Assembly (NCBI GenBank): GCA_040390225.1 | Contig: JAZJYU010000061.1 | Location: 4,104-47,439, forward strand | DNA length: 43,336 nucleotides | Direction of reading: 5' to 3' | DNA from: Actinomycetota bacterium | GTDB taxonomy: Bacteria; Actinomycetota; Actinomycetes; Actinomycetales; Microbacteriaceae | In this document: in pieces, positions 4,934-37,384 of the stretch | Layout: each line of letters opens with the position of its first letter | How positions within the stretch are numbered: position 1 is the first letter of the stretch | Position numbers and translations under genes: made by a program | Notes under the pieces: generated by a model | What the model was told of the DNA's origin: nothing | Databases searched by the model: none | What the model saw: only the letters and a program-made list of their open reading frames with translations

Positions 4934-4975
4934 GTGACTTTGGTCCCGATGAACCAGTGGCACATGAGTCAAACT
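4934..4975 (+). promoter_or_regulatory. DosR-type box with -10 element
   Basis: GTGACTTTGGTCCC 4934-4947; CAAACT 22 nt downstream. Confidence 0.6.
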
Positions 4976-5126
4976 CTTGTTTATCGGAGGGAATCGGATG
5001 CGCGATACGGGGGTATTCCGCGCAACACACAAGTGGGGACCGGGTCGGGGGTGACTCGGTCTCCACCGTGCCGGATCGAATCCGAAGGACACCGTTGAAC
5101 CTGGTCGGGATGGCCCCTGGATAGAC

Positions 5127-5140
5127 GGGACCAAGGTCCT
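5127..5140. promoter_or_regulatory. DosR-type box
   Basis: GGGACCAAGGTCCT palindrome; -10 candidates on both sides (GAGGCT on + at 5163, CAGGTT on - at 5103-5098). Confidence 0.65.
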
Positions 5141-5282
5141 TATGATCCACTGGCACATAGACGAGGCTCTGCTGCATCGGATCATGTCCGAGTGCGAGAT
5201 ATGGGGGTATCCCGCACTGCATACGCATGGAGGCCGGGTCTCGGGTGACCTGGCCTCCATTTCGTTTCGCCTCTGGCCTTGC

Positions 5283-5324
5283 GGGACCTTCGGCCCAATC
5301 CGCGCAGCGCACAGCGCCCACACT
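5283..5324 (+). promoter_or_regulatory. DosR-type box with -10, leaderless ADH promoter
   Basis: GGGACCTTCGGCCC 5283-5296; CACACT 5319-5324; ATG 6 nt later. Confidence 0.75.
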
Positions 5325-5330
5325 GGGCCC

Positions 5331-6365
5331 ATGAGAGCACTTCAGTATCGTCAGGTAGGTTCCGCCCCCGAGGTCGTCGAGATCGACACCCCGGAACCCG
5401 GCCCGGGCCAGGTGCGGCTGAAGGTCACCGCCGCGGGCCTCTGTCATTCCGACTCGTTCATCATGGGGCTGCCCGCCGAGCAGTACATCTACGGACTTCC
5501 GCTGACTCTCGGCCACGAAGGCGCAGGCATCGTCGACAAGCTCGGCGACGGAGTCACCGGAGTGGCCGTGGGCGACGCCGTCGCGGTCTATGGACCGTGG
5601 GGATGCGGTCGTTGCCACGCCTGCTCGGAGGGCCGCGAGAACTACTGCACCAACGCAGCCGCTCTCGGCATCGTGCCACCCGGACTCGGTGCGCCGGGCG
5701 CGATGGCCGACTACCTGATCGTCGACGACCCGCGACACCTCGTGCCGCTTGGCGACCTCGACCCCGTCGAAACCGTCTCCCTGACAGACGCCGGCCTCAC
5801 GCCCTACCACGCGATCAAGTCCAGCCTCGCGCATCTCTACCCGGGGTCGACGGCCGTCGTGATCGGCTCGGGCGGGCTCGGCCATGTCGCCATCCAGATC
5901 CTGAAAGCGATCAGCTCCGCCACCGTGATCGTCATCGACGTCGACGAGAAGAAGCTGGCTCTGGCGAAGCAGGTGGGCGCCGACCAGACGATCGTCTCCG
6001 GTCCGGATGCCGCCGCCGCGATCCGAACCGCAACCGGCGGCATCGGAGCACAGGCCGTGTTCGACTTCGTCGGAGCGCAGCCCACCCTTGACATCGCCCG
6101 GGAATCCGTAGCCGTCGACGGCATCATCCAGGTCGTCGGAATCGGCGGCGGAATCCTGCCGACCGGCTTCTTCTCGACCCCCTTCGGGGCTGCGGTGCAG
6201 GCACCGTACTGGGGTTCGCGCTCCGAGTTGATCGAGGTGCTCGACCTCGCCCGGCGCGGTCTGGTGAAAGTGCACGTCGAGCGATTCACACTCGACCAGG
6301 CTCCCGAGGCGTATGACCGGCTGCACGCGGGTACGATCTCCGGTCGCGCCGTCGTCGTGCCGTGA
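5331..6365 (+). CDS. Zn-dependent NAD(P) alcohol dehydrogenase (Rhodococcus ADH-A / phenylacetaldehyde reductase type)
   Basis: MRALQY...GLCHSD...GHEGAG...CGRCHAC..G.ENYC...GSGGLG...PYWGSRSEL; start reassigned to 5331. Confidence 0.92.
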   Translation: MRALQYRQVGSAPEVVEIDTPEPGPGQVRLKVTAAGLCHSDSFIMGLPAEQYIYGLPLTLGHEGAGIVDKLGDGVTGVAVGDAVAVYGPWGCGRCHACSEGRENYCTNAAALGIVPPGLGAPGAMADYLIVDDPRHLVPLGDLDPVETVSLTDAGLTPYHAIKSSLAHLYPGSTAVVIGSGGLGHVAIQILKAISSATVIVIDVDEKKLALAKQVGADQTIVSGPDAAAAIRTATGGIGAQAVFDFVGAQPTLDIARESVAVDGIIQVVGIGGGILPTGFFSTPFGAAVQAPYWGSRSELIEVLDLARRGLVKVHVERFTLDQAPEAYDRLHAGTISGRAVVVP

Positions 6366-6766
6366 GCGGACTGCTTCTTGTCGCCGTCATCCTGATCACG
6401 GCTGCGCTCCTCTTCTATACGACCGGCGTCTGGGCCGAACGCGTCAAGGGAACGCTGCGACCGTGGCATTCCGTGATGTTCGCACTGGGGTTCGCCAGCG
6501 ACCTGAGCGGCACCCTCGTGATGACTCGCATAGCGAGCACGCAGGCGGCCGGAACGTCATCGCTCGGGTCTGCCCTGACCGTCGTGATGGCGATCACCGG
6601 AACCGCGGCACTGGTGCTGATGGGGGTGCACCTCATCGCCGCGATCGTCGTTCTCGCGCGGTCACGTGCGCCGGAGCTGGCCTGGTTCCACCGCGCGTCC
6701 ATCGTCGTCTGGAGCATCTGGCTCGTGCCCTTCATCGCCGGGGCCGTGTCGGCGAACGTGCACTGA
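6362..6766 (+). CDS. HsmA-family 4-TM membrane protein
   Basis: ITAALLFYTTGVWAE...L.PWH..MF..GF..D..GT..M...ITG..A..LM..H pattern matches HsmA/TIGR03987 as recalled; GTGA overlap with ADH. Confidence 0.75.
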   Translation: MSGLLLVAVILITAALLFYTTGVWAERVKGTLRPWHSVMFALGFASDLSGTLVMTRIASTQAAGTSSLGSALTVVMAITGTAALVLMGVHLIAAIVVLARSRAPELAWFHRASIVVWSIWLVPFIAGAVSANVH

Positions 6767-7824
6767 TGCCCGCGAAGCACCCGCGACCGCGGTTCCCGAC
6801 CTGGGCGCGGGTGCTGCTCTCGACGGTCGCCCTGGGGCTGGCGGTATGGTTCGTCATCCTGCCGCAGTTCGCCGACGCGGCCGCCACTCTGCACACGCTC
6901 GAGCGCATCTCGATCCCGCTCCTGGTACTCGCGGTGGTCTGCGAGCTCGGATCACTCCTCTCGTACACGGCGCTCACCCGCACGGTGTTCGGCAAGACCC
7001 ACCCGCCCTTCTTCACACTTTTCAGGCTCGACCTCGTAGACCTCGGCATCAACCACGTCGTACCCGGAGGCGCACCCATCGCCATGGGAGTGCGCGTGAG
7101 TCTGTTCCGGTCGGTGGGCGTTCGGGGAGCGGTGGGGATGTCGGTCACGACGATCGAGATCGTCGTCGCCAACCTCATGCTCGGCGCGTTGCTCGGTCTC
7201 GGCGTCGCGCTGTCACTCGGCGTGCTCACCGGATCGGTGTGGCTCCTTGTCGCCGCGGCCGTTGTGATCGGGCTGGTGATCGCCACGATCCTTGCCACCT
7301 GGAGGCTGGTCTTTCACACCGAGAGTTCCGTTCGTGCCGTGCTGTCGGTCGTGTCGCACGTGCGTTTCATCAGTACTGAGAGCGTTGAGATGTTCCTGCG
7401 AACGATGGCACGGCAGTTGCATGGGCTGCTCACCCGGCGATCCAAGCGCGTGAGGGCGATCATCTTCTCCGCGCTCAACTGGATCCTCGACGCCGCGGTG
7501 CTATGGATCATGCTGAGCGCCTTCGGCACCCCACCGCCGATCGGCGGTGTGATCACGGTGTACGCCGCCGGCGTTCTCGTCTCCATGCTGCCGATCACTC
7601 CGGGTGGACTCGGTGTGGTCGAGGGCTTCATGGTTCCCGCGCTGGTCCTGCTGGGAACCGTCCACTCGACCGCTCTCATCGCGGTGCTCGCATGGCGCCT
7701 GCTCGAATACTGGCTGCCCCTTCCGCTCGCGGGACTCTCGTGGATCTCGCTCCTGGTCGACAGACGCCGGGACCAAAGGCCCGTCGCGAGCGCGGCACCT
7801 GCTCCAGCATCGAGCCATGGATAA
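6766..7824 (+). CDS. Lysylphosphatidylglycerol synthase TM-domain (YbhN/UPF0104 flippase-like) protein
   Basis: Multi-TM; INHVVPGG and LPITPGGLGVVEG...AVLAWRLLEYWLP motifs; ATG 6766 overlaps the upstream TGA. Confidence 0.85.
   Translation: MPAKHPRPRFPTWARVLLSTVALGLAVWFVILPQFADAAATLHTLERISIPLLVLAVVCELGSLLSYTALTRTVFGKTHPPFFTLFRLDLVDLGINHVVPGGAPIAMGVRVSLFRSVGVRGAVGMSVTTIEIVVANLMLGALLGLGVALSLGVLTGSVWLLVAAAVVIGLVIATILATWRLVFHTESSVRAVLSVVSHVRFISTESVEMFLRTMARQLHGLLTRRSKRVRAIIFSALNWILDAAVLWIMLSAFGTPPPIGGVITVYAAGVLVSMLPITPGGLGVVEGFMVPALVLLGTVHSTALIAVLAWRLLEYWLPLPLAGLSWISLLVDRRRDQRPVASAAPAPASSHG
7769..7810 (+). promoter_or_regulatory. DosR-type box with -10 inside the 3' end of the upstream gene, leaderless arc promoter
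   Basis: GGGACCAAAGGCCC 7769-7782; CAGCAT 7805-7810; ATG 7817. Confidence 0.65.
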
Positions 7825-9205
7825 GACCACAGACATCGCCCCTCGCAAGAAGGCGACGCCCGGCAGGCTCGGCCTGCCCACCGCATCCGCGCTCGTCATC
7901 GGATCGGTCATCGGTACCGGAGTGTTCGGTATCCCGTCCGCCCTCGCCATGTTCGGCCCCATCAGCCTCGTCGCCTTCGTGCTGGTCACTATCGGAGCAC
8001 TGGCGCTCGCGATCGTGTTCGGCTGGCTGGCCCAGCGCATCCCCGGATCCGGTGGCCCGTACCTCTACGCACGGGATGCGTTCGGGGACTTCGCCGGCTT
8101 CCTCAACAGCTGGTCGTACTGGGTGACGGCCTGGGCGGGCAATGCGGCGATCGTCGTCGCGCTCACCGGCTACGTGGAAGTGTTCGTGAATAAGGACCAC
8201 AACATCTGGTGGTCGATCGTGATCGCCGTGATCGGACTGTGGATCCCGGTGCTGATCAACGTCGTCGGCATCCGCACCCTCGGTGCGGCTCAGGCGATCT
8301 TCACGGTGCTGAAGGTCATCCCGCTCGTGCTCATCGCCGTCGTCGGGTTGTTCTTCATCAATCCGGCCAACTTCGGTGCGTTCAATTCGTCGGGCACCAA
8401 CGCCTGGAGCGCCATCGCCGGTGCGGGCGCGATCGTTCTGTTCGCCTACCTGGGCATCGAGACCGCGTCCGTGGCCGCCGGCCGCGTGCGCAATCCGGAG
8501 AAGAACGTGCGCAGGGCGACCGTCTGGGGCACCGTGATCTGTGGTGTCATCTACGTTCTCGGCACTCTGGCCGTGTTCGGCACAGTGAGCAACAAGGCGC
8601 TTCGCACCTCGACGGCGCCGTTCAGCGATGCCGCCAACGCGATCTTCGGAGGCACCTGGGGAGGCGACCTCATCGCGATCGCCGCCATCGTCTCCGGACT
8701 CGGCTGCCTCGTCGGCTGGACCTTCATCGTGGGCGAGATGCCGTTCGCGGCCGCGAAGGATGGGATGTTCCCGAAGGTCTTCGCTCGTGAGACCCGTGGC
8801 CTGCCGATCGTCGGCATCCTCGCGTCGACCATCTTCGCCACCCTGCTCACCGTGCTCGCGTACACGAACTTCTCGAACGTGTTCACGACGGTGCTGCTGC
8901 TGACCGTGTTCACCTCGGTGATCCCGTACATGTTCTCGGCGGGTGCGCAGGTGTTCTGGCTGGTCACCCATCGCCGCACCATGGCATGGGGGCCGTTCGC
9001 GAAGGACCTGTCCATCTCCATCGTCGCTCTCGCGTTCACGTTCTGGGCTCTCGCGGGCAGCGGCGCGCAGGCCTGCTATTACGGCGTGTTCTGCTTCCTG
9101 CTCGGTGTGCCGCTCTACATCTGGTTGCGCGCGTCGAAGAAGAAGGACCCGCTGGACGAACCGGCCGCCACTGCTCCGGCGCCGGAACTGGAAAGGGCAT
9201 CATGA
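7817..9205 (+). CDS. APC-family amino acid permease, probable arginine/ornithine antiporter (ArcD/PotE-like)
   Basis: [26 protein letters not shown] motifs; about 12 TM; first gene of the arc operon. Confidence 0.88.
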
Positions 9206-10476
9206 CCACCGCCACTGCCTCGGCCGGTCCACTGGACGAACCGACCGCCGCGGCCGATCTCGGGGTTCACTCCGAGGTCGGGCGCCTGCGCAAGGTGATC
9301 GTGCATCGGCCGGGACTCGAGCTCGCGCGGTTGACACCGCAGAACCGCGAGGAACTGCTCTTCGATGACGTTCTCTGGCCATCGAAGGCACGCTCCGAGC
9401 ACGACGGCTTCGCCGATGCGATGGAGTCTCGCGGAATCGAGGTGTTCCACTTCGACACGCTTCTCTCCGAGACACTGGAGCAGGCCCCGGCCCGTGACTT
9501 CGTGCTCGACCGGCTCTGCACGACCGACGTGTTCGGGCCGTCTTTCGCACCGTACCTGCGTCACGCTCTCGCTGAGCAGGAGTCGGCGCGTCTCGCCGAG
9601 TTGCTGATCGGCGGCATTCTGCCATCGGATATCGCAACACCGGCGAGCGCGAGCCTCTTCGCGGATGCGCTTGGGCCGGACGGATTCCTCGTTCCGCCCG
9701 TGCCGAATTCACTCTTCCCTCGCGACAGTTCGGCCTGGATCTACGGCGGTGTCAACGTCAACGTCATGGCCAAGCCGGCGCGGGCACGCGAGACCGACCA
9801 TGTGCGGGCGATCTACCGGTTCCACCCGATGTTCGCGGACGCTCAGTTCGCGCAGTTCAACACGGACGAGACACGGCGTCGCTCCACGATCGAGGGCGGC
9901 GATGTGCACGTGCTCGGTCATGGGGCAGTGCTGGTCGGGATGGGCGAACGCACCACTCCGATGGCGGTCGAACTGCTCGCCAAGGAATTGTTCGCCACCG
10001 GTTGGGCCACGTCGGTGATCGCCATCGCGCTGCCGAAATCGCACTCGATGATGCACCTCGATACCCTCATGACCATGGTCGATCACCGCACTTTCGTGCT
10101 GTACCCGAACGTGGCGCCGAAATCGTTGCACGCGTGGAGGATCACGCCGTCGGGTGACAGCGATCGGCCGTTACGGGTCGATGCCGAACGGCCCCTGATG
10201 GCTCTGATCGGTGAAGCGCTCGACCGGTCGGACATCCGTGTGCTGTCCGCCGACGAGGACAGCCGGGCCGCCGAGCGCGAACAGTGGGATGACGCAAACA
10301 ACTACCTGGCACTCGAGCCTGGCGTCGTCGTCGGCTACGACCGCAACGTCACGACGAACACGATGCTGCGCAGAAACGGCATCGAGGTGATCACCGTTCC
10401 CGGCAGCGAGCTCGGACGCGGTCGCGGTGGCTCACGCTGCATGTCCTGCCCCATCCTGCGCGACCCGGCGGAGTGA
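9202..10476 (+). CDS. arcA: Arginine deiminase
   Basis: [54 protein letters not shown] (catalytic Cys). Confidence 0.97.
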
Positions 10477-11513
10477 TCGATATGACCTTGCTCACCGAAC
10501 CGGCGACCGGCATCCGGCACCTGCTGCGCGACACCGACCTCACGAAGGCCGAATATCTGCGCCTGCTCGACGACGCCGCGGCTCTCAAGCGGGAGCGCGC
10601 AACGGGGACCATCAGTCCCCGGCTCACGGGACGCGATGTCGCGGTCATCTTCGAGAAGCCCTCCACCCGCACGCGGAGCGCCTTCGAGGTCGCGCTGCAC
10701 GACGAAGGCGCCGGCTGCACCTACATGGATTCGGCGAGCAGCCACCTCGGCACGGCGGAGTCCTTCGAGGACACCGCCAAGGTTCTGAGCCGCTTCTACG
10801 ACGGCATCGCCTATCGCGGGTTCGCGCAGTCCGCCGTCGAGGAGCTCGCGCAGCACGCGTCGATTCCGGTCTGGAACGCGCTCACCGACGAATGGCATCC
10901 CACCCAGGCGCTCGCCGACATGCTCACGATGCGTGAGACGGCAGGCAAGCGGCTCGAAGACGTGGTCGTGTGCTTCACGGGCGACGGCCGCAACAATGTC
11001 GCCCGCAGCCTCATGACCTCGGCGGCGATCCTGGGCATGGACATGCGGATCGCAGCACCTGCCGCGCTCCAACCGCCGCCGTCGGTGATGACCTACGTGC
11101 GGGCGATCGCAACGCACTCCGGCGGCTCGATACTCATCACCGACGACGTCGAAGCGGCCGTGCCTCGCGCGGACTTCATTTATACGGATGTCTGGGTGAG
11201 CATGGGCGAGTCAGACGAGCTGTGGGACGAGCGGGTGCCGCTGCTGAAGCCGTACCGCGTCGACTCCGAGTTGATGGCGCTGACCGGGAACCACCAGGTG
11301 AAGTTCCTGCACTGCCTGCCTAGCATCCATGACCGAACCACCGAACTCGGCGCGAAGGTCTTCGAGCGCTACGGCCTGGAGGGCGCCGAGGTGAGCAACG
11401 AGGTCTTCACCTCGAACGCGTCGAGGGTCTTCGAGCAGGCGGAGAATCGCATGCACACAATCAAAGCCGTCATGCTCGCATCACTGAATTCCACCGACTC
11501 CGCGGAGAGCTAG
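10473..11513 (+). CDS. arcB: Ornithine carbamoyltransferase (catabolic context)
   Basis: [44 protein letters not shown]; start may be ATG 10482. Confidence 0.95.
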
Positions 11514-12424
11514 TGCGCATCGTGATCGCTCTCGGGGGCAATGCGCTGCTCAAGCGCGGCGAACGACCGGATGCCTCCATCCAGCTCGCCCACCTCGACT
11601 CGGTCGCGCCGGCGATCGCCCGGCTGGCTGCGGACCACGACGTCATCATCGTGCACGGGAATGGGCCACAGGTCGGGTTGCTCGCGAACGAGAGCGCGGC
11701 CGATCCGGCCCTGAGATCGCCGTATCCACTGGCGGACCTGGTCGCCGAGACGCAGGGCCTGATCGGCTCGTGGATCCAGCGCTCGCTCACGCATGCCGGG
11801 TTGACCAGGGACGTCATCGTGCTCGTCTCGAGAACCCTGGTGAACCACGACGACCCCGCCTTCCACAGGCCGGCGAAGTTCATCGGCCCGATGCTCGACG
11901 CCGACCAGGCGAGACGGGCGAGGGCGCAGGGACGCACGATCGCAATGGACGGCGAATCGTGGCGACAGGTCGTTCCCTCCCCAACGCCCGTGAGAGTGCT
12001 CGAAACCGCACGAGCGTCGCAACTGCTCGACGCCGGCTGCACCGTCGTGCTCGCCGGCGGCGGCGGAATCCCCGTCGACCAGCACGGTGACGCGATCGAC
12101 GCCGTGGTCGACAAGGATCTGACCGCAGCCAGGATCGCCGTCGATCTCGAAGCGGAGCTGCTTGTGATCCTCACCGACGTGGACGGCGTGATGCGCGACT
12201 TCGGCACGTCAGGGCAGACGTTGATCCGCGCAACCACGTCCAAGGAGCTCTCCTCTCAGCAGTTCGCCGACGGGTCCATGGGTCCCAAGGTTCGTGCGGT
12301 CAGCCAGTTCACTTCGGCCACGGGCCGCCGGTCGGCAATCGGCCGACTCGATGAGCTCACCGGAATCATCGTGGGGACCGCGGGCACCCAGGTGCACGCT
12401 GAAGCCGTGACGGCGGCGACATGA
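11513..12424 (+). CDS. arcC: Carbamate kinase
   Basis: IVIALGGNAL, HGNGPQVG, KFIGP, GGGGIPV, AVVDKD, GSMGPKV. Confidence 0.95.
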   Translation: MRIVIALGGNALLKRGERPDASIQLAHLDSVAPAIARLAADHDVIIVHGNGPQVGLLANESAADPALRSPYPLADLVAETQGLIGSWIQRSLTHAGLTRDVIVLVSRTLVNHDDPAFHRPAKFIGPMLDADQARRARAQGRTIAMDGESWRQVVPSPTPVRVLETARASQLLDAGCTVVLAGGGGIPVDQHGDAIDAVVDKDLTAARIAVDLEAELLVILTDVDGVMRDFGTSGQTLIRATTSKELSSQQFADGSMGPKVRAVSQFTSATGRRSAIGRLDELTGIIVGTAGTQVHAEAVTAAT

Positions 12425-13224
12425 GCAATCACCTCCCGCACCCGGGCCGCGCGCCCTCCCTTCATATCGCCAGCGACAACGGCAGTGGACCGGCTGTGCT
12501 GCTCGTTCACGGCATCGCGTCGTCGGCGACGACCTTCGATCCGGTGCTTCCGCTTCTCGGCGGGCATCGCGCGATCGCCGTCGACCTGCTCGGTTTCGGG
12601 CGCTCGCCTGCCCCGCTGAACTCGGACTACACGATCGACGACCACGTCGCCTTCCTCGAGCGCACGATCGAGGATGTGCGCGTCGAGGGTCCGATCGTCG
12701 TTGTCGGTCACTCGATGGGCTCGCTGATCGTTGCCAGGCTCGCGGCAAGGAACCCGTCGCTCGTGCACGGCGTCGTACTGGTCAGCCCGCCGGTCTACCT
12801 GCCTCCGGAGATCCTCTCCAATCGGACCGACCGTGCGACCATGGGGCTCTACCTGCGCATCTACGAGTTTCTGGGGAACAATCGCGATTTCAGCGTCAGC
12901 GCTGCGCAGGCGATAGCGCAGTTTCTCCCACGGGAGGGATTGCTTCATCTGGACGAACACGACTGGCGGCCGTTCGCACTGTCTCTGCGGCACTGCATCG
13001 AGAGCCAGACGACCATCGATGACATCTCCAATATCACGGCGCCGATCGAGGTCATCTATGGCGCCCTCGACCCCTTGATGTTGCGCGAGGGGCTCCACAT
13101 CGTGAGCCGCATGCGCAATGTGCATACCGAGAAGATCTCCGGCGCCGATCACATCGTGCGCGAGCGACTCGCAAGGGCGATCGCTGACGCGGTGAACCGG
13201 GTGTCGTCACCCGTGGGACCTTAG
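12421..13224 (+). CDS. Alpha/beta-fold hydrolase
   Basis: LVHGI, DLLGFGRS, GHSMG nucleophile elbow, G..D and GADH; ATGA overlap with arcC. Confidence 0.88.
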   Translation: MSNHLPHPGRAPSLHIASDNGSGPAVLLVHGIASSATTFDPVLPLLGGHRAIAVDLLGFGRSPAPLNSDYTIDDHVAFLERTIEDVRVEGPIVVVGHSMGSLIVARLAARNPSLVHGVVLVSPPVYLPPEILSNRTDRATMGLYLRIYEFLGNNRDFSVSAAQAIAQFLPREGLLHLDEHDWRPFALSLRHCIESQTTIDDISNITAPIEVIYGALDPLMLREGLHIVSRMRNVHTEKISGADHIVRERLARAIADAVNRVSSPVGP

Positions 13225-13256
13225 TCCCGAGACGCACCGAGACCCGGGTCGATGAT
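13215..13256 (+). promoter_or_regulatory. DosR-type box with -10 element
   Basis: GGGACCTTAGTCCC 13215-13228 (near-perfect palindrome); GATGAT 22 nt downstream. Confidence 0.7.
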
Positions 13257-13262: not shown

Positions 13263-13381
13263 AACGCTCGTGGCCGATTCCCTTTCCGGCGCGCCCGAGC
13301 CGGGCATCCCGCCGACCTGCGCCTGTACCCGAACGGCGCTGGGGTGTCGGGTCGGGGAGCTCCCCCCAGAGCTCCCCGACC
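13263..13381 (+). ncRNA. Candidate ~120-nt DosR-dependent sRNA
   Basis: Has its own box and -10; no credible ORF; ends in a perfect 13-bp stem; the downstream gene has a separate promoter. Confidence 0.45.
13350..13381 (+). terminator. Perfect 13-bp hairpin with CCCCCA loop
   Basis: GGTCGGGGAGCTC-CCCCCA-GAGCTCCCCGACC; no U tail. Confidence 0.6.
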
Positions 13382-13392
13382 ACAATCTCGCC

Positions 13393-13434
13393 GGGCCTTT
13401 CGACCCTATTCGGCCTTCGGCGCGGGCGCACTAT
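13393..13434 (+). promoter_or_regulatory. DosR-type box with -10, leaderless BON gene promoter
   Basis: GGGCCTTTCGACCC 13393-13406; CACTAT 13429-13434; ATG 13442. Confidence 0.65.
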
Positions 13435-14119: not shown

Positions 14120-14125
14120 TCCCCT

Positions 14126-15195: not shown

Positions 15196-15237
15196 AGGAC
15201 TTTCGGCCCGATTCGGGTGGTGCAGCGTGCCTAGCGT
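15196..15237 (+). promoter_or_regulatory. DosR-type box with -10 element
   Basis: AGGACTTTCGGCCC 15196-15209; TAGCGT 15232-15237. Confidence 0.75.
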
Positions 15238-18157: not shown

Positions 18158-18199
18158 AGGACCTTGGTCCCGGTCGTTCGCGGTCGTGCACGAAATGCT
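18158..18199. promoter_or_regulatory. DosR-type box in the devS / usp-cyd divergent region
   Basis: AGGACCTTGGTCCC 18158-18171; AATGCT 22 nt downstream on +. Confidence 0.75.
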
Positions 18200-20491: not shown

Positions 20492-20502
20492 GAGCAACGA
20501 CC

Positions 20503-26498: not shown

Positions 26499-26536
26499 TT
26501 CCTTCTTCTTTCCCTTTATCTTTGGCGACCTGAGGG

Positions 26537-28275: not shown

Positions 28276-29438
28276 GATGCCTTCTCTTTTGCTTCGGTGA
28301 GTCCCAGCGCGGCTCGAACCGCCTCGTTGGCGATCGCGCCATCGTGCGCAACGACTATCGCCGAGTGGATCTCGTCGGCGGGGTCGATGACGATGCCGTC
28401 CTGCGGCGCCAGCGAACTGAGGGCCGCCGCGACATTGCGCCCGTACATCTGCGACGCCGACGCGGGCAGGTCGGCGGCGAGTTCTCCCGCACCCACCACG
28501 ATCACTCCCTCCGGAGTGACGATTGTGCTGAGTTCGACCGACCCCGCCACGTTCCCGCCCTGAGAACTCGACCCGAGGTCGACGCAGACCGAACCGGGTC
28601 TGAGCGAGTGCAGCGTGTCTGCGCTGACCAGTACTGGCGGGGTCTTGCCAGGGACCTTGGCGGTGGTGATGATGATGTCGAAATTCACGAGCGCCGCCGA
28701 CAGTTCCGCCTGTTGCTGCTTCTGTTCTTCGGCTGTCATCGCACGCGCGTATCCGCCGGCACTGGCCCCCTCGCTGACCGAGGAGGTGAGGAACTGCGCA
28801 CCGAGCGACTCGACCTCGCCACGGGAGGCGGCGCGTACGTCGTACCCGGTCACGACCGCCCCGAGGCGCTTGAGCGTTGCGATCGCCTGCAGCCCGGCGA
28901 CGCCGGTGCCGATGACGATGGCGGCCGCAGGCTTCGCCGTTCCGGATGCGGTGATCATCATCGGCAGGTAACGCCCGAACGCGTCGGCTGCGACGATTCC
29001 CGCCCGATACCCGGCCGCGCTCGCTTGCGAGCTGAGCGCGTCCATCGACTGCGCGCGGCTCAGCGTTCGCGGGAGCAGTTCGAAGGCGACCACGGTGACC
29101 CCCGCATCCGCGAGTTCACCGATGGCGTGAAGGTTGTTGAACGGGTCGAGCAGCCCGATGAGCACCTGGCCGGAGCGCAGGCGCTTCAGCACCGCTGCAT
29201 CCGGAAAGCGTACGGCCGCGATCACGTCGCACTGGCTGAGCACCTCGGCGCGTGTCGCGATTCGCGCCCCGGCGGCCGTGTACTTCGCGTCCGGGAAGCT
29301 CGCGGCCACGCCGGCGGCGGCTTCGACGATAACGTTGCGCCCGTCTTTTACCAGTCGGGCTGTCGCCTCGGGATCGAGGGCGACACGCTTCTCACCGAGC
29401 GCGGTTTCGTGCAGAACACCGATGGTCAACGACGTCAT
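28272..29438 (-). CDS. pntAA: NAD(P) transhydrogenase subunit alpha part 1
   Basis: E...GEKRVAL.P, RAQSMDALSSQ, GTGVAGLQAIAT, GGYAR; ATG 29438. Confidence 0.95.
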   Translation of the reverse strand: MTSLTIGVLHETALGEKRVALDPEATARLVKDGRNVIVEAAAGVAASFPDAKYTAAGARIATRAEVLSQCDVIAAVRFPDAAVLKRLRSGQVLIGLLDPFNNLHAIGELADAGVTVVAFELLPRTLSRAQSMDALSSQASAAGYRAGIVAADAFGRYLPMMITASGTAKPAAAIVIGTGVAGLQAIATLKRLGAVVTGYDVRAASRGEVESLGAQFLTSSVSEGASAGGYARAMTAEEQKQQQAELSAALVNFDIIITTAKVPGKTPPVLVSADTLHSLRPGSVCVDLGSSSQGGNVAGSVELSTIVTPEGVIVVGAGELAADLPASASQMYGRNVAAALSSLAPQDGIVIDPADEIHSAIVVAHDGAIANEAVRAALGLTEAKEKAS

Positions 29439-29872
29439 CGCGCGATCTCCGCCGTGACATGGCGATTCAGCCGACGGCCCGAGATCGTGCTCGGCACGAT
29501 CGTCACATAGACGAAGGGCTTGGTCGGGTGCCACTCGGGCAGCGGCCGTCGATCAGCGGCGTCGATGTCGTCCGGCGTGGTCAGCACGATGGCCCTGCCT
29601 TTCACCGTCACGCTCCACGCAGCGTCTCCGACGCGGGAGTCCACCTCGAAGACGACCGAGTCGTTCTTCAGCAACTCGTGCAGCTTGGTGCCGGACGCCG
29701 TCCTGAACAGCACCGTGGACCCGTCGGCGTGGTAGTCGACCGGGAAGATCTCCGGCTGGCTGTCAACACTCACGCCGAGCCTTCCGAGGGAGGTACCGTC
29801 GAGCAGGGCCCAGCACTCGGTGTCGGACAGTTCAGCAACCGGCCCCTGGGGGGACCACTCATCCGTGGACAT
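29435..29872 (-). CDS. Pyridoxamine 5'-phosphate oxidase-like FMN-binding split-barrel protein
   Basis: ELSDTECWALL....LGRLGV....PEIFPVDY, FRTASGTKL, VFEVD, WSVTVKG, ISGRR. Confidence 0.88.
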   Translation of the reverse strand: MSTDEWSPQGPVAELSDTECWALLDGTSLGRLGVSVDSQPEIFPVDYHADGSTVLFRTASGTKLHELLKNDSVVFEVDSRVGDAAWSVTVKGRAIVLTTPDDIDAADRRPLPEWHPTKPFVYVTIVPSTISGRRLNRHVTAEIAR

Positions 29873-30630
29873 CAGATCGCCGACCAACCACCGTCGACGG
29901 GCAGGATCGCGCCGTTCACGTTGCTCGCCTCGTCGCTCGCGAGCCAGGTGATCGATGCGGCCAGCTCTTCCGCCTCGGCGAATCGCGGGATCGAACCCAT
30001 CAGCGGCCCCAGTCGCTCCTGTGCCCATGCCGACTTGAACGGCGCCTCGATGTTGGTCTTCACCGCACCCGGTGCGACTGCGTTCGCGCGGATGCCCTTC
30101 GGGCCGTAGAGCACGGCCATGCTCTGAGTCATGCCGTTCACCGCATGCTTCGAGGCCGCGTATGCGACCCCGGACGCCGAGGCGTGCAAGCTGGCCTCAG
30201 ACGAGACGTTCACAATCGATCCGTGGCCCGCCTCGATCATGCCGGGCAGTACGGCACGACACAGCCGCATGATCGCGGTGACGTTCACGGCGAACACGCG
30301 CTCCCAGGTCTCGTCGGTGACCTCGGCCATCGGCAGGAACGCATCCATGATTCCGGCGACGTTGGCCAGCACGTCGACGACCGGCCCGGCCGCGGTCACC
30401 ACGGCCTTCGTGGTCTGCTCTGCCGAGATGTCGCCGGCGACGGTGATCAGGTCGAGGTCGGGAAACTCCGTCGTGAGCTGGTCGAGCCGCTCCTGGAACA
30501 CGTCGGTTGCGACGACCTTCGCCCCCTCGCGTGCGAACCGGATCGCCGTCGCCCGCCCGATTCCCGAACCGGCCCCGGTGACGATGGCCACCTTCCCGGT
30601 GAATCGTCCCTCGAAAACGGTGTCGGCCAT
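29872..30630 (-). CDS. SDR-family oxidoreductase
   Basis: [17 protein letters not shown] catalytic motif, ANAVAPG, VDGG. Confidence 0.93.
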
Positions 30631-30677: not shown

Positions 30678-30719
30678 ACTGTCCGTCTGCCGTCAGGACG
30701 GAAGCGGGACTTTCGTCCC
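30678..30719 (-). promoter_or_regulatory. DosR-type box with -10 for the SDR-pnt-ALDH operon
   Basis: GGGACTTTCGTCCC 30706-30719; GACAGT on - strand 22 nt away; overlaps the 3' end of the P-type ATPase. Confidence 0.7.
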
Positions 30720-33191
30720 CCGACGTCCGCGCCGTCGGGTCTCATCGGGATCGAACCCGCTCCACGGGCGTCGCTTGAGGGTCTCGGTCGCCACGAGGTA
30801 CACGAGGGCGGTGGCGAGAACGCTCACGAGGATCAGGGGCGATGGGGCGGCGAAGCCGAAGAATCCGGCGAACGGCAGGAAGGGCAGAGCGAACGTGACC
30901 ACGGCGATCGTGATGGTCGCCGCGAGAAAGAGCGCGTCCGGACGGCTGCGCAGAAAGAACCGTCCGGTACGCAGCGACACCAGCACCACCATCTGGGTGA
31001 GCGCGGACTCGATGAACCACGCGCTCTGGAAGACACCCTCAGGGGCGTGGAACACCCAGCTCAGGATGGCGAAGGTGGTCAGGTCGAAAACGGTGCTCAG
31101 CGCACCGAAGAGCACCATGAACCGCTGGATGGACCCCAGCCTCCAGTGCCCGGGACGCACCAGGCGTTCGGGGTCGACACGGTCGCGCGCGACGAGGGTA
31201 TTCGGCAGGTCGGCGAGGAAGTTCAGCAGCAGGATCTGCCCAGGCAGCATGGGAAGGAACGGCAGCAACGCAGACGCGATCACCATGCTGAGCACGTTGC
31301 CGAAGTTGGAACTCGACGCGAACCGCACGTATTTCAGCGTGTTCGCGAATGTCTTGCGGCCGAGCTTCACCCCGGTTGCGACGACACCGAGGCTCTTCTC
31401 CAGCAATACGATCGCCGCCGCCTCCTTGGCGACGTCTGATGCGGTATCCACCGAGATTCCGACATCCGCCGCATGCAGGGCTGGGCTGTCGTTGATGCCG
31501 TCGCCCAGGAATCCGACCGTCTGGTGGCCCGCTTTCAGGGCAACCACGATCTCCTCCTTGTGCCGCGGTTCGACCTCGGCGAACACATCGCTCACGGCCA
31601 CCGCGTGTCGTAGCGCCGCCGGGCTCATCGTGTCGATGTCCACCCCCGTGACCACACGTGTCGTGCGCAGTCCGATGCGTTTGGCGAGAGCCGTGGCGAC
31701 GAGTGCGTTGTCCCCGGTCACCATGACGACCCGCACGCCGAGACGGTCCAGGTCGGCGACGTCGCCCGTCACGTCGTCTTTCAGCTCGTCCCGGAAGACG
31801 AGGAGTCCCACCAGGGTGAGGTCCTTCTCGTAGGTCGCGTCGACCACGGCGCCCGCCGGAAGGCTGCGAGTGGCCACCGCGAGCACCCGGTACCCCTTGG
31901 CGCTCAGCGTGCGATAGAGGCGTCGGGCCGATTCCAGCGCGGCGGGGGAGCGATCGCCGGACACCTTCGTGCAGCAGGCGAGCAGCGGCTCGAAGGCGCC
32001 CTTCGAGATGAGGGTCAGGCGGCCATCGAGCTGCAGCGCGATCGACAGCCGCTTGCGCGTGAAGTCGTACGGGACCTCGCCGACGGCCACCTCATCCGAG
32101 GGCTTATCGGCCCGGAGCACGGCATCGTCGAGCGAGTTCTTGTAGCCCCGCTGCAATCCGGCGTTGAGCGCTGCCAGTTTGAGCACGTCGGCGCTCGTGG
32201 CCCCATCCGGGGCGAGCGCCGAGTGCAGTTCGACCGCGCCGGAGGTGAGTGTTCCGGTCTTGTCTGTGCACAGGACGGTGAGGGAACCCAGGTCCTCGAT
32301 GACGTCGAGCCGTTTGACGATCACCTTCTCTTTGGCGAGAGAGCGCGCACCGACGGACAGGCTCACAGAGACGATCACGGGCAGCATCTGGGGTGTGACC
32401 CCCACAGCGAGCGCGAGCGAGAACAGCAGCGCATCCACGAGGGGCCGGCCGAGCACGATGTTGATGACGAAGACCGCTATCGTCAGTACGATCATCACGC
32501 GGAGAAGCAGCAGTCCGAATCTGCTGATGCCATGTTCGAACGCGGTCGGCAGCGCCTTCGTGCCGAGGCGAGCGGCGACCGCTCCGAACTGGGTACGGTC
32601 CCCCGTGACGACGACCAGCGCGCTTCCTGTTCCGCTCACCACATGGGTGCCCTTGAAGACGCAGTTGGCGCGAAGTGCGAGTGGGGTGGATTCCGAGAGC
32701 TCCGCCGCGGCATCCTTCTCGCTCGGCAGCGACTCTCCGGTGAGGGCCGACTCGTCGACGGTGAGCTCATGCGCGTCGAGCAGCCGGCAGTCGCCCGGCA
32801 CGACATCGCCCGCCGCCAGCCGGATCACATCGCCGGGCAATACCTCAGCCAGCGGAAGGGTCATCTCCTTTCCGTCCCGGGTGAGGTCGATCGTGGCCGT
32901 CACCTGGGCGAGAAGCAGCTCGACATCCTTCGAAGCCCGGTACTCCTGAACGAACCCGAGCAAAGCGCTCGCGACCACGATCACCGCCACGATCGAGGCA
33001 TCCGTCACGTCGCCGACGGCCGCCGCGACGACCGCTGCCATGACCAGGATCAGGGTCACCGGCGACAGGAACTGCCTGATGAAGATCCGCCACCCTGGCG
33101 TTCTCTTCCTGAGCGGATCGGTCTGCACCGGCGCCTCGACCAGCGAGCTCCGGAGTTCGGCTACGGATGCCGTCCAGAGGGTGACGCTCAC
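30693..33191 (-). CDS. MgtA-like P-type ATPase
   Basis: [40 protein letters not shown]; TM4 reads TPQMLP; GTG 33191 overlaps the xfp stop. Confidence 0.88.
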
Positions 33192-35602
33192 GACCGAGCA
33201 GGCCCAGTCGGAACAGTAAGCCACTCCCAGCCCCGGACATCCGGGGAGTCCTCCCCGTGCTCGTAGGCGTATGCCCGATGACGCGATCGCTCCGCGTCGA
33301 GACGCTGGCTCACCATCGCGTAGGCCTGGTCGGTCGACTCGACGTGGCGGATCACATCCATCGCCAGCCGGAACCGGTCAAGGTCGTTCAGCATGACCAT
33401 GTCGAACGGCGTCGTCGTCGTGCCCTTCTCGTTGAAGCCGCGAACATGCAGGTTCGCGTGGTTGTGTCGACGATAGGTCAGCTGGTGCACGAGTGCAGGA
33501 TAGCCGTGGAAGGCGAAGATCACCGGCTTATCCTTCGTGAAGATCGAGTCGAAGTCGTCGTCGGACATCCCGTGCGGATGCTGGCTCGGGTGCTGCAGCC
33601 GCATCAGGTCGACCACGTTGACGAAGCGGATGCGGAGCGCCGGCACCTGCCCGGCCAGAAGTCGCACAGCAGCAAGCGCTTCGAGGGTCGGTACGTCGCC
33701 CGCCGCCGCCACGACCACATCGACCTCCTCACCCTCCTTCTCGGTACCGGCCCAGTCCCAGATGCTGATTCCGCGTGCTCCGTGTTCGCGCGCTTCCTCG
33801 ATCGAGAGAAAGGTGGGGGCCGGCTGCTTTCCGGCGACGATCACGTTGACATAGTCACGGCTCGCCAGACAGTGCTCAGCAGTGACCAGCAGGGTGTTGG
33901 CATCCGGTGGCAGGTACACCCGCACCACGGATGCACTCTTGTTCACGACGTGATTGAGAAAGCCGGGATCCTGATGTGAGAACCCGTTGTGGTCCTGGCG
34001 CCACACGTGTGAGCTCAGCAGGTAGGTGAGGGACGCGATAGGGCGTCGCCACGGTATCCGCGCGCTCGACTCGAGCCACTTGGCATGCTGGTTGAACATC
34101 GAGTCGACCACGTGGATGAACGCTTCGTACGAGTTCATCAGGCCGTGGCGCCCGGTGAGCAGATACCCCTCGAGCAGACCCTCGACCAGGTTCTCGTTGA
34201 GCACCTCGATGACCTTGCCCTCGGCGGCCAGATGTTCGTCGGTGGCGACCACGCTCCCCTGCCACTGCTTCGCCGTGACCTCGTACACCGCGTCGAGCCG
34301 ATTCGACGCGGTTTCGTCCGGCCCGAACACCCGGAAGTCGCGTGGGTTGGCGCGCATCACATCCGCGAGCCAGTGGCCGAGAACCCGTGTCGCCTCCACC
34401 GATTCGCCGCCCGGCTCCACCGCACGCGAGTCGACGGGCGGAAGCTCGAGTGCGCGCAGGACGAGCCCGCCGTTCGACTGTGGAATCGCGCTCATGCGCT
34501 TGTCTCCGCGCGGACGCACCTGCTCGAGCACTTCCGAGGGCCGGCCCTTGGCGTCGAAGAGCTGGTGGGGCCGGTAGCTGCGCATCCAGCCTTCGAGCAG
34601 TGCCAGGTGGGCCGGGTTCTCGCGAACCTCCGCCAGCGGGATCTGGTGCGCCCGCCAGGTTCCCTCCACCGGTACCCCGTCTACGAATCTCGGTCCGGTC
34701 CACCCTTTGGGCGTTCGCAGAATGATCATGGGCCACGCCGGACGCTGCGTCGAGTGCTCGAATCGGGCCGCGTGCTGGATCCGCTTGATGTCGGCCATCG
34801 CCCGCTCGAGCGTCGATGCCATCTGCCCGTGCACCACCATGGGGTCTTCGCCGTCGAAGCCGCCCGACACGATCCGTGGTGAGTAGCCGTACCCGCGAAG
34901 CAGGGCGAGCAGTTCGTCCTCGGGGATGCGGGCGAGGATCGACGGGTTGGCGATCTTGTACCCGTTGAGATTGAGAATCGGGAGCACCGCCCCGTCGGTC
35001 GCGGGGTTCAGGAACTTGTTCAGGTGCCAACTCGACGCGAGCGTGCCCGTCTCCGCCTCGCCATCCCCGATGACGCAGGCGACGATGAGGCTCGGGTCGT
35101 CGAGGGCCGCGCCATAGGCGTGCACGAGCGAGTAGCCGAGTTCGCCGCCCTCATGGATCGATCCCGGCGTGTCGGGCGATGCGTGCGAGGGGATGCCCCC
35201 CGGGAAGGAGAACTGGCGCACCAGCGCCTCGAGGCCCGCGGCATCCTGAGTCACCCGTGGAAAGAGTTCCGAGTATGTGCCGTCCAGCCAGGCGTTGGCG
35301 ACCACCGCCGGTCCCCCGTGACCGGGACCTGCCACATAGAGAACGTTGAGATCGTGTTCGATGATCACCCGGTTCAGGTGCGCGTAGACCAGGTTCAACG
35401 CGGGCGAGGTGCCCCAGTGGCCCAAGAGCCTCGGCTTGATCTGGTCGGCGCTCAATCCCTCCGCGAGAAGCGCATTGCGCATGAGGTAGATCTGACCGAC
35501 CGTCAGATAGTTCGCCGCTCGCCACCATGCGTCGACCGCGTACAACGGAAAACTCTCTCGTGTGGCGAGTTGCTGGTGGTCGTGGGCGGGCACACTCTGC
35601 AT
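33188..35602 (-). CDS. xfp: Xylulose-5-phosphate/fructose-6-phosphate phosphoketolase
   Basis: [58 protein letters not shown]; GAGGAG RBS before ATG 35602. Confidence 0.96.
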
Positions 35603-35624
35603 CGTCTTCTCCTCTGTCATTCGC

Positions 35625-35694
35625 ACGGTACGAGCTAGCGTCCCCTGCGAGCGGGACGTTGGTCCCTCCATTGGTACTCCGCGGCCTTCAGGCT
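35625..35694. promoter_or_regulatory. Single DosR-type box serving two divergent promoters (xfp and usp)
   Basis: GGGACGTTGGTCCC 35653-35666; TACCGT on - (35630-35625) and CAGGCT on + (35689-35694), both 22 nt away. Confidence 0.75.
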
Positions 35695-35735
35695 ATGCAC
35701 GTACGTGCAGATCGCGAAGAGTGTGGAGACCGAAC

Positions 35736-36587
35736 GTGACAGAAGGAATCGTCGTCGGAGTGGACGGAAGCTCCGCCAGCGATGCGGCCGTCGACTGGGC
35801 GATCGACTGGGCCGCGCGGACCGGAGCCGCGCTCCGCCTCACCGCTGTGGTGGATGCGAGCTGGGCCGGCTTGAAGTCGACGGGATTCTCGACCGCATAC
35901 ACCGACATTCTCGAAGTCGCTCTTACGCATGCCGCGGAACGGAGCTCGACAGCGCACCCGACCACCTCGCTGCGGTTCGGCGGCGTCGTCGAGGAGCTCA
36001 TCGTCGAATCTCACGGCGCAGACCTACTCGTCATCGGAACGAACAAGACGAGCAGGCTGGCGGGCGTCATCCACGGGACGACGCCGCTCAAGCTGGCCGA
36101 CGCGATCTACCGCCCGATGGTGGTGGTCCCACCCTGGTGGAGTCAGAACGACGGACCGGTGATCGTCGGGCTCGATTCAGCCACGGACCACGAGGCTCTG
36201 CGATTCGCGGCGGTGGCGGCGGAGGCGTTCGACGTCCCCCTCGTATTGCTCCACAGCTGGCAGACACCGCCCCTGCTGATCGCGGACGTGCTCGCCTATC
36301 GCGAAGTCACCGACTCCATGAAGCAGACCGGAAGCGAGCTGCTCGACGAAACGGAGTCGACGCTGTCCGCCCTCCATCCCTCACTCACGATCGTGAAGAA
36401 GCTGGCCGCCGGCGAACCGGCGGAAGTACTGGTCCAGTCCGCGGAAGACGCCCGGATGGTGGTGCTCGGAAGCCATCAGCGGCACGCGCTCAACGGTCTT
36501 CTGCTCGGGTCCGTCGGCCACGACCTTCTGATGAACATGCCATGCCCCGTCGCGATCGTTCCTCCGTCGACTGCGGTGGATCAGTGA
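35736..36587 (+). CDS. Tandem-domain universal stress protein
   Basis: IVVGVDGS...VIVGLD...LLLGSVGHDLL.N.PCPVAIVP; GTG 35736. Confidence 0.92.
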   Translation: MTEGIVVGVDGSSASDAAVDWAIDWAARTGAALRLTAVVDASWAGLKSTGFSTAYTDILEVALTHAAERSSTAHPTTSLRFGGVVEELIVESHGADLLVIGTNKTSRLAGVIHGTTPLKLADAIYRPMVVVPPWWSQNDGPVIVGLDSATDHEALRFAAVAAEAFDVPLVLLHSWQTPPLLIADVLAYREVTDSMKQTGSELLDETESTLSALHPSLTIVKKLAAGEPAEVLVQSAEDARMVVLGSHQRHALNGLLLGSVGHDLLMNMPCPVAIVPPSTAVDQ

Positions 36588-36853
36588 TGCCGGCCCATCC
36601 GATCTTCGTGAATCCGACCCGGCACTGGCTGCTGGTGCACGATGGCACCACCCACCAACTCGAGTGGGATGACGGCGAACGCCTTCTCGCTCTTACCGCG
36701 GACGTCAGGGGTGGCGGTCTCGCACCGCGTCCATTCAGTTTCACCCCGCGCGGGTCCGTCGACGGTCAGACGGTCACCGTGTTTGTCGACGTGACCTCGT
36801 CGCTGGAACTCCTGACGCAGTACGACGCAGCGGAATCGCACTGGTTCGGATGA
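36587..36853 (+). CDS. 88-aa hypothetical protein
   Basis: MPAHPIFVNPTRHWLLVHDG...AESHWFG; TGATG coupling to the USP; fills the gap up to the next DosR box. Confidence 0.65.
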   Translation: MPAHPIFVNPTRHWLLVHDGTTHQLEWDDGERLLALTADVRGGGLAPRPFSFTPRGSVDGQTVTVFVDVTSSLELLTQYDAAESHWFG

Positions 36854-36857
36854 CGGG

Positions 36858-36900
36858 GGGACGAAAGTCCTGCGGCCGGACTCGGCGCGCTCGATAGGTT
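36858..36900 (+). promoter_or_regulatory. DosR-type box with -10 element
   Basis: GGGACGAAAGTCCT 36858-36871; TAGGTT 36895-36900. Confidence 0.7.
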
Positions 36901-36934
36901 GTGGTCCTCCGCACCATAAAGAAAAGGGGGCACC

Positions 36935-37384
36935 ATGGGCGACCTGGTCACCACACTTCACGTCGTCGCCGCCGTCTTCATCGTCGGCCCGATGGCGATA
37001 CTGCCGATGATCGGACTGCAGTCGATCCGCACGGGCAATGCACCGACCCTGCTGCGGCTCGCGAAATCCACGAACCTGTTCGCGCTGCTCTCCATCATCG
37101 TGTTCCTACTCGGCTTCGGAGCACTCGCCGTCGCCGATGCGAAGGAGCGCTGGTCGATCACGACACCGTGGATCATGACGTCGATCATCCTGTACCTGGT
37201 GGCTGCGTCACTCAGCCTCTTCGTCACCGCACCGGTGATGCGGGCGAAGGCGCACTCCCTCGAGCAAGAGCCTGACACGGGAGTCGCGCACGGCGCTCGT
37301 GCCTACCGCATGATCGCTGCCGGCTCGGGACTCTCGTCGCTGGCTCTCGTCGCAGTGGTCGTGCTCATGGTGTGGAAGCCATGA
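36935..37384 (+). CDS. 4-TM membrane protein, DUF2269-like
   Basis: LHVVAAVFIVGP...PWI...VVVLMVWKP C-terminus; family recalled, not searched. Confidence 0.7.
   Translation: MGDLVTTLHVVAAVFIVGPMAILPMIGLQSIRTGNAPTLLRLAKSTNLFALLSIIVFLLGFGALAVADAKERWSITTPWIMTSIILYLVAASLSLFVTAPVMRAKAHSLEQEPDTGVAHGARAYRMIAAGSGLSSLALVAVVVLMVWKP

Follow-up and report, generated by a model that had tools for sequence, protein, structure and literature searches.

Does the 32-kb block between positions 4934 and 37384 of a Microbacteriaceae contig (JAZJYU010000061.1) form one hypoxia regulon and, if so, is it the self-contained anaerobic energy island that a first-pass annotation had made of it? The window analyzed here is the whole stretch of 43,336 nt, positions 4104-47439 of that contig (C61), from a 2.98-Mb genome assembled in 206 contigs (94.6% complete, 66% guanine plus cytosine). 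Between 5331 and 37384, we found 29 genes arranged as ten predicted transcription units whose ends overlap or nearly touch: adh1-hsmA-flippase-like; arcD-arcA-arcB-arcC-hydrolase; BON-adh2; usp1; dosS-dosR; usp2-cydABDC; sdr-PNPOx-like-pntA1-pntA2-pntB-aldh; xfp-mgtA; usp3-orf88; and DUF2269 (Table 1). We consider it probable that the block represents the core of a DosR-type regulon, gathered in one cluster, in which the sensor-regulator pair likely activates the 29 genes at low oxygen in support of survival rather than anaerobic growth. Gene identities, boxes, box-to-hexamer spacing and the conservation of boxes before arcD, xfp, pntA and cydAB are derived from sequence, and from these we infer the steps of the mechanism.

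The devS/devR-like pair named in the first-pass annotation held up by PDB match, domain order and key residues; as judged by these features, the kinase (DosS) and the response regulator (DosR) are homologues of DosT/DevS and DevR, respectively. The GAF-A domain of the kinase matches DosT and DevS, keeps the equivalents of the haem ligand His149 and distal Tyr171, and carries glycine at the position of DosS Glu87, as in DosT; the named records nearest to this kinase are from Microbacteriaceae, several of them labelled Lacisediminihabitans. The regulator keeps Asp57 and Lys107 (Asp54 and Lys104 in DevR), with a recognition helix identical to that of DevR in the alignment. Near the regulator sit three universal stress proteins (USPs) and a PF12900 flavin-binding protein, the USP/flavin core of DosR regulons.

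All eleven 14-nt palindromes reported around this pair are present at their coordinates. We scanned the window with a palindromic position weight matrix trained on the 260 nt that precede dosS at 77 related loci, with no window DNA used; 50 of the 77 training regions hold a site of the refined matrix. At a score of at least 10, the matrix returned exactly these 11 sites, vs. 0.97 expected from the rest of the genome (p 1.7e-8) and a mean of 1.6 in 200 shuffles (maximum 6), i.e. the motif is enriched over its shuffled background. The published DosR consensus (PMC2947987, Table S6 legend), used with one N narrowed to D, matched 6 of the 11 boxes exactly vs. 0.11 expected, and 0 of 100 shuffles reached 6, bearing out the proposed likeness to the mycobacterial DosR box. 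The proposal that the boxes mark every transcription unit is likewise supported, with the qualification that the boxes at 4934, 5127 and 13215 head no protein gene; a limit to it is pta-ackA (37389-40609; best matrix score 6.6), which adjoins the block yet is unboxed.

At each of the 11 boxes, an N-A-N-N-N-T hexamer begins 22-23 nt away from the box edge, vs. 0.11 (11%) at control offsets. Among relatives, the hexamer is most frequent at 23 nt (present in 166 of the 606 directions vs. 1-5% at other offsets) and the box-to-hexamer spacing is carried by 218 of 303 sites, while some relatives have box pairs 24-26 nt apart. Where such a promoter has a downstream open reading frame (255 predicted promoters, including a few loci of this genome itself), the start codon falls exactly at the predicted +1 in 60. 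The box-to-ATG distances of adh1, arcD and the BON gene (Table 1) match the primary DosR site of M. tuberculosis tgs1, at -42.5 in the part of the report cited here (PMC3177182). Fixed spacing between box and hexamer provides a rule that predicts the direction and the start of DosR-type promoters across the family.

The placing of ATP-yielding, redox and bd genes behind boxes gains from the relatives, in which boxes before arcD, xfp, pntA and cydAB are conserved. For arcD, box plus hexamer was found in 6 of 6 related orthologues from five genera (0.1% in random windows), vs. 0 of 10 distant arcD homologues beside the other arcA type (11 of 20 distant arcA loci sampled). The arcA gene is rare (2 of 32 genomes of the genus; 27 of 301 family genomes, of which 7, this one included, are at least 54% identical) and, outside the family, a close arcD occurs in only 9 of 350 genomes. 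The phosphoketolase clade of the window (Shimodaira-Hasegawa-like approximate likelihood ratio test 99 in a quick tree) is boxed in 11 of 12 members vs. 3 of 24 in its sister group; boxes also precede pntA1 in 7 of 9 rows and adh1 homologues in 11 of 13, and no own box was found in relatives before mgtA (0/19) or aldh (0/5). In 14 of the 15 genomes where both were found, no more than about 4 kb separates dosS from the window-type cydA, which follows usp2 or a box of its own. A survey of 80 named loci to a distance of 10 kb from dosS gave usp2 (53), the PNPOx-like gene (40), mgtA (20), xfp (17), cydA (12), pntB (7), ackA (5) and arcA (0). By gene and box content, then, the modules recur among relatives, and no other genome examined has as full a set as the present one. 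Both xfp and cydA come in two types within the genus (identity 78-84% vs. about 63% for xfp, and 79-88% vs. about 45-60% for cydA), and in both cases the window's type is the DosR-linked one; cydA genes of other types have their own box in three other loci, which suggests repeated recruitment.

Several points weigh against a regulon of this kind. Secondary tandem boxes are essential in M. tuberculosis, according to the cited part of PMC3177182; here, all matrix scores within 70 nt of the window boxes were below 0, the published secondary sites being too degenerate for matrix detection. Toward dosS, the hexamer at canonical spacing is missing, as it is in 84 of 88 homologues (it faces dosS in 4), and autoregulation of dosSR is doubtful because of it. 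An unseeded motif sampler recovered the box in only 3 of 30 runs, albeit with the top information score, with the remaining runs mostly settling on the start of the usp2 coding sequence. Box counts at usp2 and dosS are circular since the matrix was trained on that intergenic region, and counts among relatives, which share ancestry, do not represent independent events. Of 3 arcD-arcA operons outside the family, 2 have no box at arcD; a stricter box-plus-hexamer filter was passed by only 3 of 9 pntA1 and 8 of 44 xfp rows; and pta-ackA is unboxed in relatives as well as here (pta 0/3, ackA 0/7). In addition, an ExaC-like aldehyde dehydrogenase produces NADH and does not remove it.

If the block is indeed a clustered regulon core serving survival at low oxygen, loss of O2 from the GAF-A haem (or binding of NO or CO) would activate the kinase, leading to phosphorylation of DosR, which would bind a single strong box, its centre some 42 nt ahead of the start, and recruit RNA polymerase, often for leaderless mRNAs. 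Cytochrome bd, for which cydABDC of the usp2 operon are the only genes found in the genome, would scavenge trace O2. ArcDABC would turn arginine into ATP and ammonia, with one ATP per arginine and no redox cost, while Xfp would make acetyl phosphate from sugar phosphates for conversion by the adjoining, unboxed AckA into acetate and ATP. PntAB, the alcohol dehydrogenases and AdhP, the last encoded on another contig, may buffer the NAD(P)H pool. This scheme fits survival in microoxic to anoxic spells, and its operation would resemble that of the arginine/acetate survival programme that Anr controls in Pseudomonas, with DosR as the switch instead.

The form given to the locus by the first-pass annotation, a self-contained island conferring true anaerobic energy metabolism, seems to us very improbable. 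It draws on the contiguity of the 29 genes, on the single copies of arc, xfp, pnt, cyd, pta and ackA in the assembly, on the concentration of 8 of the 23 strong boxes (score at least 14) in a window that makes up 1.5% of the genome, and on the patchiness of this arcA type; moreover, alanine dehydrogenase, acetolactate decarboxylase and an indolepyruvate-decarboxylase-like 2-oxoacid decarboxylase, all present in the genome, could feed NADH sinks. The locus is not self-contained, however: the other 15 strong sites are located on contigs other than this one, the hexamer accompanies 10 of these, and adhP is among their targets; about half of the regulon lies elsewhere. Nor does it resemble foreign DNA, as evidenced by: 1) typical composition, with tetranucleotide distance percentiles of 0.30-0.70 for four 8-kb blocks and the arc operon at the 43rd percentile; 2) no tRNA gene found in the window; 3) a dosSR-usp-cydABDC core common to the genus (among same-genus genomes, 20 of 24 carry dosS and 26 of 31 carry cydA), only the arc cassette being patchy among genus and family genomes. 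A horizontally acquired island was accordingly rejected, since neither atypical composition, nor a tRNA anchor or mobility genes, nor absence from kin was found. Finally, to call it an anaerobic energy programme is an overstatement. Cytochrome bd needs and consumes oxygen, ackA is unboxed, and no dedicated terminal electron sink was found; lactate dehydrogenase (LDH), pyruvate formate-lyase, AdhE (an iron-dependent alcohol dehydrogenase of AdhE length), NiFe hydrogenase, NarG and a DmpF-type acylating dehydrogenase were not found in this 94.6% complete genome, and the whole genome gave no PF00056 match, so that L-LDH and NAD-malate dehydrogenase both went unfound. The genome has an aa3 oxidase as well as AdhP, and the three possible sink genes named above are unboxed.

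Outside the window, box-plus-hexamer promoters occur on contigs C12, C16, C42, C60, C76, C83, C86, C160 and C184. The boxed genes include adhP and a 2-oxoglutarate-Fe dioxygenase (C12), a small protein with a cytochrome b-like operon (C16), a SHOCT protein (C42), cytochrome c oxidase subunit IV, which is boxed in R. equi too (C60; PMC2947987 Table S6), flavodoxin and a PNPOx-like protein (C86), a D-2-hydroxyacid dehydrogenase (C160), and a heavy-metal ATPase, a ferric-reductase-like protein and glutamate decarboxylase (C184). Near the boxed gadB on C184 lie a gene for a pSAM2-type replication initiator and one for an Nramp transporter, the latter broken into two reading frames (765-1826 and 5053-6388 of the extracted stretch).

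Could the same regulator and boxes serve mainly to protect against acid or ion stress during hypoxia rather than to supply energy? Arginine deiminase and glutamate decarboxylase both consume protons, Mg2+ uptake and membrane modification accompany them, and the ammonia released by arginine deiminase in R. equi is discussed as acid tolerance in the relevant part of PMC2947987. The glutamate decarboxylase gene is preceded by box and hexamer (C184, score 11.7), a Na+/H+ exchanger gene by a box (C83, score 12.3, hexamer at 24), and MgtA and the protein with lysylphosphatidylglycerol (lysyl-PG) synthase transmembrane (TM) domain are encoded in boxed operons. Against this, the ATP-forming carbamate kinase has been retained in the window and in 5 of the relatives' 6 boxed arc operons, and cydABDC, pntAB and xfp are without a direct role in pH. 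We regard a mainly protective purpose as rather unlikely, yet as a serious contender in view of the boxed gadB and ion transport genes, noting that the two purposes are compatible and not exclusive. That the palindromes arose by chance in GC-rich DNA, or belong to another regulator of Rex or FNR type, we find hardly credible. The bare core with 2 mismatches is certainly common (36 in the window, 1599 elsewhere), and cydABDC of S. coelicolor is described as Rex-controlled (PMC2799521, in part), but chance sits poorly with the 11 sites where 0.97 were expected, the hexamer at all 11, its recurrence in the relatives and the six exact consensus matches, and Rex and FNR patterns matched no promoter of the block. 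An FNR-type regulon was also rejected on its own account, as that pattern gave one intragenic match with 1 mismatch, which is chance level.

How new is such a regulon? DosR regulons that are clustered and include fermentative genes have been published before, and the comparisons that follow are confined to the parts of the papers cited. In S. coelicolor, the OsdK/OsdR regulon (SCO0167-0219; PMC5069765) resembles the present one in its DevR orthologue, in the same 16-bp palindrome, which OsdR and DevR both bind in vitro, in boxes densest around the regulator with further sites elsewhere, and in targets that include USPs, Zn-dependent alcohol dehydrogenases and PNPOx-like proteins; its energy module, in contrast, is nitrate reductase 2, with NarG not found here, and the main text of that paper contains 0 occurrences of arginine, phosphoketolase or cytochrome. 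The DevR clusters of M. smegmatis (msmeg_3926-3955 and 5241-5246) are similarly grouped and include a P-type ATPase (PMC2799521; bioRxiv 10.1101/2023.09.11.557286), and they are hypoxia-induced with an active fermentative function in an obligate aerobe (PMC2799521; bioRxiv 2023.09.11.557286, 2026.10.24.761498). Their electron sink is the hydrogenase Hyh together with triacylglycerol, whereas no hydrogenase was found here, and cytochrome bd of M. smegmatis is induced separately by a regulator stated to be unknown (PMC2799521) and counted apart from DosR-regulated proteins (PMC8125079), whereas cydABDC here stands behind a box. DosS/DosT-DosR of M. tuberculosis shares sensor architecture, haem residues, regulator, box and the -42 primary site (PMC3177182, PMC4082495) but requires the tandem boxes that the matrix did not detect here (PMC3177182). 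In M. massiliense, a usp-xfp-devR-kinase locus of about 18 genes, proposed to aid hypoxic survival, likewise places phosphoketolase, alcohol dehydrogenase and USPs beside devR; its published gene list lacks arc, cyd and pnt, and the passages cited contain no analysis of boxes (PMC4263727).

Closest in layout is the lxa cluster of B. cenocepacia (PMC3721108, in part), a 50-gene low-oxygen cluster with USPs, Zn-dependent alcohol dehydrogenase, acetate kinase, P-type ATPase and phospholipid-binding proteins, with its motif at 17 intergenic points and at outside loci; it is not a genomic island and helps anoxic survival, not growth. Unlike the present locus, it is proteobacterial, with an FNR/Anr-like motif and no DosR pair. 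Closest in logic is Anr of P. aeruginosa, with oxygen-controlled arcDABC and an acetate route for survival, though Anr is of a different family, with an Fe-S sensor, dispersed genes, direct activation of ackA-pta and LdhA present (PMC12491237, in part). The predicted boxes of R. equi (PMC2947987 Table S6) include no cyd, xfp or arc gene, and the main text of the M. avium regulon paper (PMC11876180) leaves arginine, phosphoketolase, cytochrome and transhydrogenase unmentioned. Our literature searches turned up no description of a DosR box at arcDABC, cydABDC or pntAB, or of such a regulon in Microbacteriaceae, subscription papers being outside the scope of this search. As to which targets are unusual, the earlier description stands for arcDABC, cydABDC and pntAB only, because alcohol dehydrogenases and the P-type ATPase, like the USPs and FMN-binding proteins that it rightly took as typical members, are ordinary in published DosR/OsdR regulons. 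The boxes and the regulator pair argue for a genuine core of a DosR-type regulon, whose targets form a distinctive and conserved set; it is likely a hypoxia regulon of known type that has been wired anew, with cytochrome bd and the arginine deiminase pathway placed behind a DosR-type box.

Table 1. Boxes, genes and candidate RNAs of the locus (window coordinates)
Feature	Coordinates	Strand	Details
Box 1	4934..4947	+	score 17.5; hexamer 4970-4975; opens non-coding unit 1
Box 2	5127..5140	+	score 14.8; hexamer 5163-5168; opens non-coding unit 2
Box 3	5283..5296	+	centre 41.5 nt before adh1 ATG; predicted leaderless
Box 4	7769..7782	+	centre 41.5 nt before arcD ATG; predicted leaderless; inside 3' end of upstream gene
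Box 5	13215..13228	+	score 18.8; opens ~120-nt non-coding stretch; inside 3' end of upstream gene
Box 6	13393..13406	+	centre 42.5 nt before BON ATG
Box 7	15196..15209	+	score 11.0; precedes usp1
Box 8	18158..18171	+	between dosS and usp2-cydABDC; canonical-spacing hexamer on usp2 side only
Box 9	30706..30719	-	score 16.0; precedes sdr-pnt operon; inside 3' end of mgtA
Box 10	35653..35666	.	score 19.1, best of the genome; divergent, hexamers toward both xfp and usp3
Box 11	36858..36871	+	score 10.7; upstream of DUF2269 gene
Candidate small RNA, copy 1	4982..5070	+	G-loop hairpin and 14-bp terminal hairpin; fold z -3.25; start predicted from box spacing
Candidate small RNA, copy 2	5175..5268	+	terminator-like hairpin 5227-5260, T-rich tail (terminator scan); fold z -3.94
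Third structured non-coding unit	13263..13385	+	perfect 13-bp hairpin 13350-13381; fold z -3.93
Zn-dependent secondary alcohol dehydrogenase, ADH-A-like (adh1)	5331..6365	+	PDB 2xaa, E 7e-148
HsmA family protein	6362..6766	+	TIGR03987 above cut-off
Lysyl-PG synthase TM / flippase-like protein	6766..7824	+	PF03706, TIGR00374
arcD-arcA-arcB-arcC: antiporter, arginine deiminase, ornithine carbamoyltransferase, carbamate kinase	7817..12424	+	Pfam/NCBIfam; overlapping stops/starts
Alpha/beta hydrolase	12421..13224	+	PF00561
BON-domain protein and Zn-dependent alcohol dehydrogenase (TIGR02822 family; adh2)	13442..15193	+	Pfam/NCBIfam
Universal stress protein 1 (usp1)	15279..15743	+	PF00582
DosR/DevR-type response regulator (dosR)	15709..16359	-	best PDB match DevR 3c3w, 232.7 bits; next 138.7
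DosS/DosT-type sensor kinase (dosS)	16352..18052	-	GAF-GAF-HisKA_3-HATPase
usp2-cydA-cydB-cydD-cydC operon	18228..24790	+	Pfam/NCBIfam
sdr, FMN-binding (PNPOx-like, PF12900), pntA1, pntA2, pntB, ExaC-like aldehyde dehydrogenase	24906..30630	-	Pfam/NCBIfam
xfp (phosphoketolase), then MgtA-type Mg2+ P-type ATPase	30693..35620	-	NF003619, TIGR01524 above cut-off
Universal stress protein 3 (usp3) and 88-aa protein (orf88)	35736..36853	+	usp3 by profile match; orf88 in no named family
DUF2269 membrane protein	36935..37384	+	PF10027
pta-ackA	37389..40609	-	adjoins block, unboxed; ackA is the ATP-forming step for acetyl phosphate

Gene identities were checked with Pfam and NCBIfam profiles across the window proteins, and all genes named in the earlier list were borne out, some more exactly than stated: the P-type ATPase is of the Mg2+ MgtA type, the aldehyde dehydrogenase is ExaC-like and non-acylating, and arginine deiminase is part of a complete arcDABC operon. 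The 88-residue protein after usp3 matched no named family. Left of the block, flanked by corA and by kdpABC, which lies immediately outside the left window edge, two divergent paralogous proteins of ~172 residues (1796-2314, minus strand; 2540-3061, plus strand; 29% identity, E 2e-13) are without a Pfam or NCBIfam match. At the right window edge (40663-42600), a MarR regulator and a DHA2-family efflux gene of the major facilitator superfamily are unboxed and outside the regulon.

Unremarked in the first-pass annotation, the boxes at 4934 and 5127 head two tandem non-coding units that lie 193-194 nt apart and are paralogous, with 94 of 139 aligned letters identical and a pair alignment score of 41, whereas none of the other 65 pairings of post-box segments scored above 5. 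We consider the chances roughly balanced between candidate DosR-induced small RNAs of ~90 nt and a duplication relic. Both copies keep box, hexamer, spacing, the G-loop hairpin and a 14-pair terminal hairpin; between the copies, this terminal stem shows two-sided changes in 2 pairs and one-sided changes in 3 while every pair stays intact, which speaks for a functional RNA, while two-sided changes in the G-loop hairpin were rejected, the changes being one-sided in a common register. Only a little short of evens, in our estimate, is the reading that these units (4934-5268) are relics of a duplicated promoter, leader and terminator, or genes for 18-residue peptides. The box-to-hexamer spacer is as conserved as the RNA part, copy 2 also folds well on the minus strand (z -6.0), and an 18-codon frame is kept in both copies, although most codon differences between them change the amino acid. 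This reading also gains from the absence of boxed homologues: BLAST in 300 family genomes gave short chance matches only, a covariance model run on 140 genomes gave weak matches in 15, with an upstream box in 0 of the 14 examined, and pattern searches of metagenomes gave 0 and 1 matches, the 1 unrelated. In Rfam 15, no gathering-score match was obtained for 4982-5268 or for the third unit at 13263-13385 (best E 1.2 and 0.045, far from the cut-offs), nor did the rest of the window match a family; the third unit is a candidate small RNA or a long BON leader. Elsewhere in the genome (C21, about 11465-11575, minus strand), a structured non-coding element divergent from a maltokinase gene has a long hairpin with a G-loop tip that resembles that of the tandem units. 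This element, with 16 same-genus copies, two-sided changes in 11 of 29 predicted pairs among 17 sequences and no Rfam match, looks like an undescribed RNA. We did not file the tandem units in its family because the model matched only the shared hairpin (E 0.32 and 4.9). M. tuberculosis has a DosR-regulated small RNA, DrrS, as described in part in PMC5360333; if the tandem units are small RNAs, they would be a second kind under DosR control.

More tentatively, we speculate that DosR of Microbacteriaceae may be a low-oxygen master switch akin to FNR/Anr, which has captured, time and again, cytochrome bd, transhydrogenase, a dedicated phosphoketolase clade and a mobile arcDABC cassette that carries its box along, acting through single boxes at constant spacing from mostly leaderless starts and, in the present genome, driving a duplicated, undescribed small RNA of ~90 nt. 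With testable promoter coordinates, the locus points to a way by which bacteria of a family commonly regarded as aerobic may generate ATP once oxygen is exhausted, with neither hydrogenase nor nitrate reductase.

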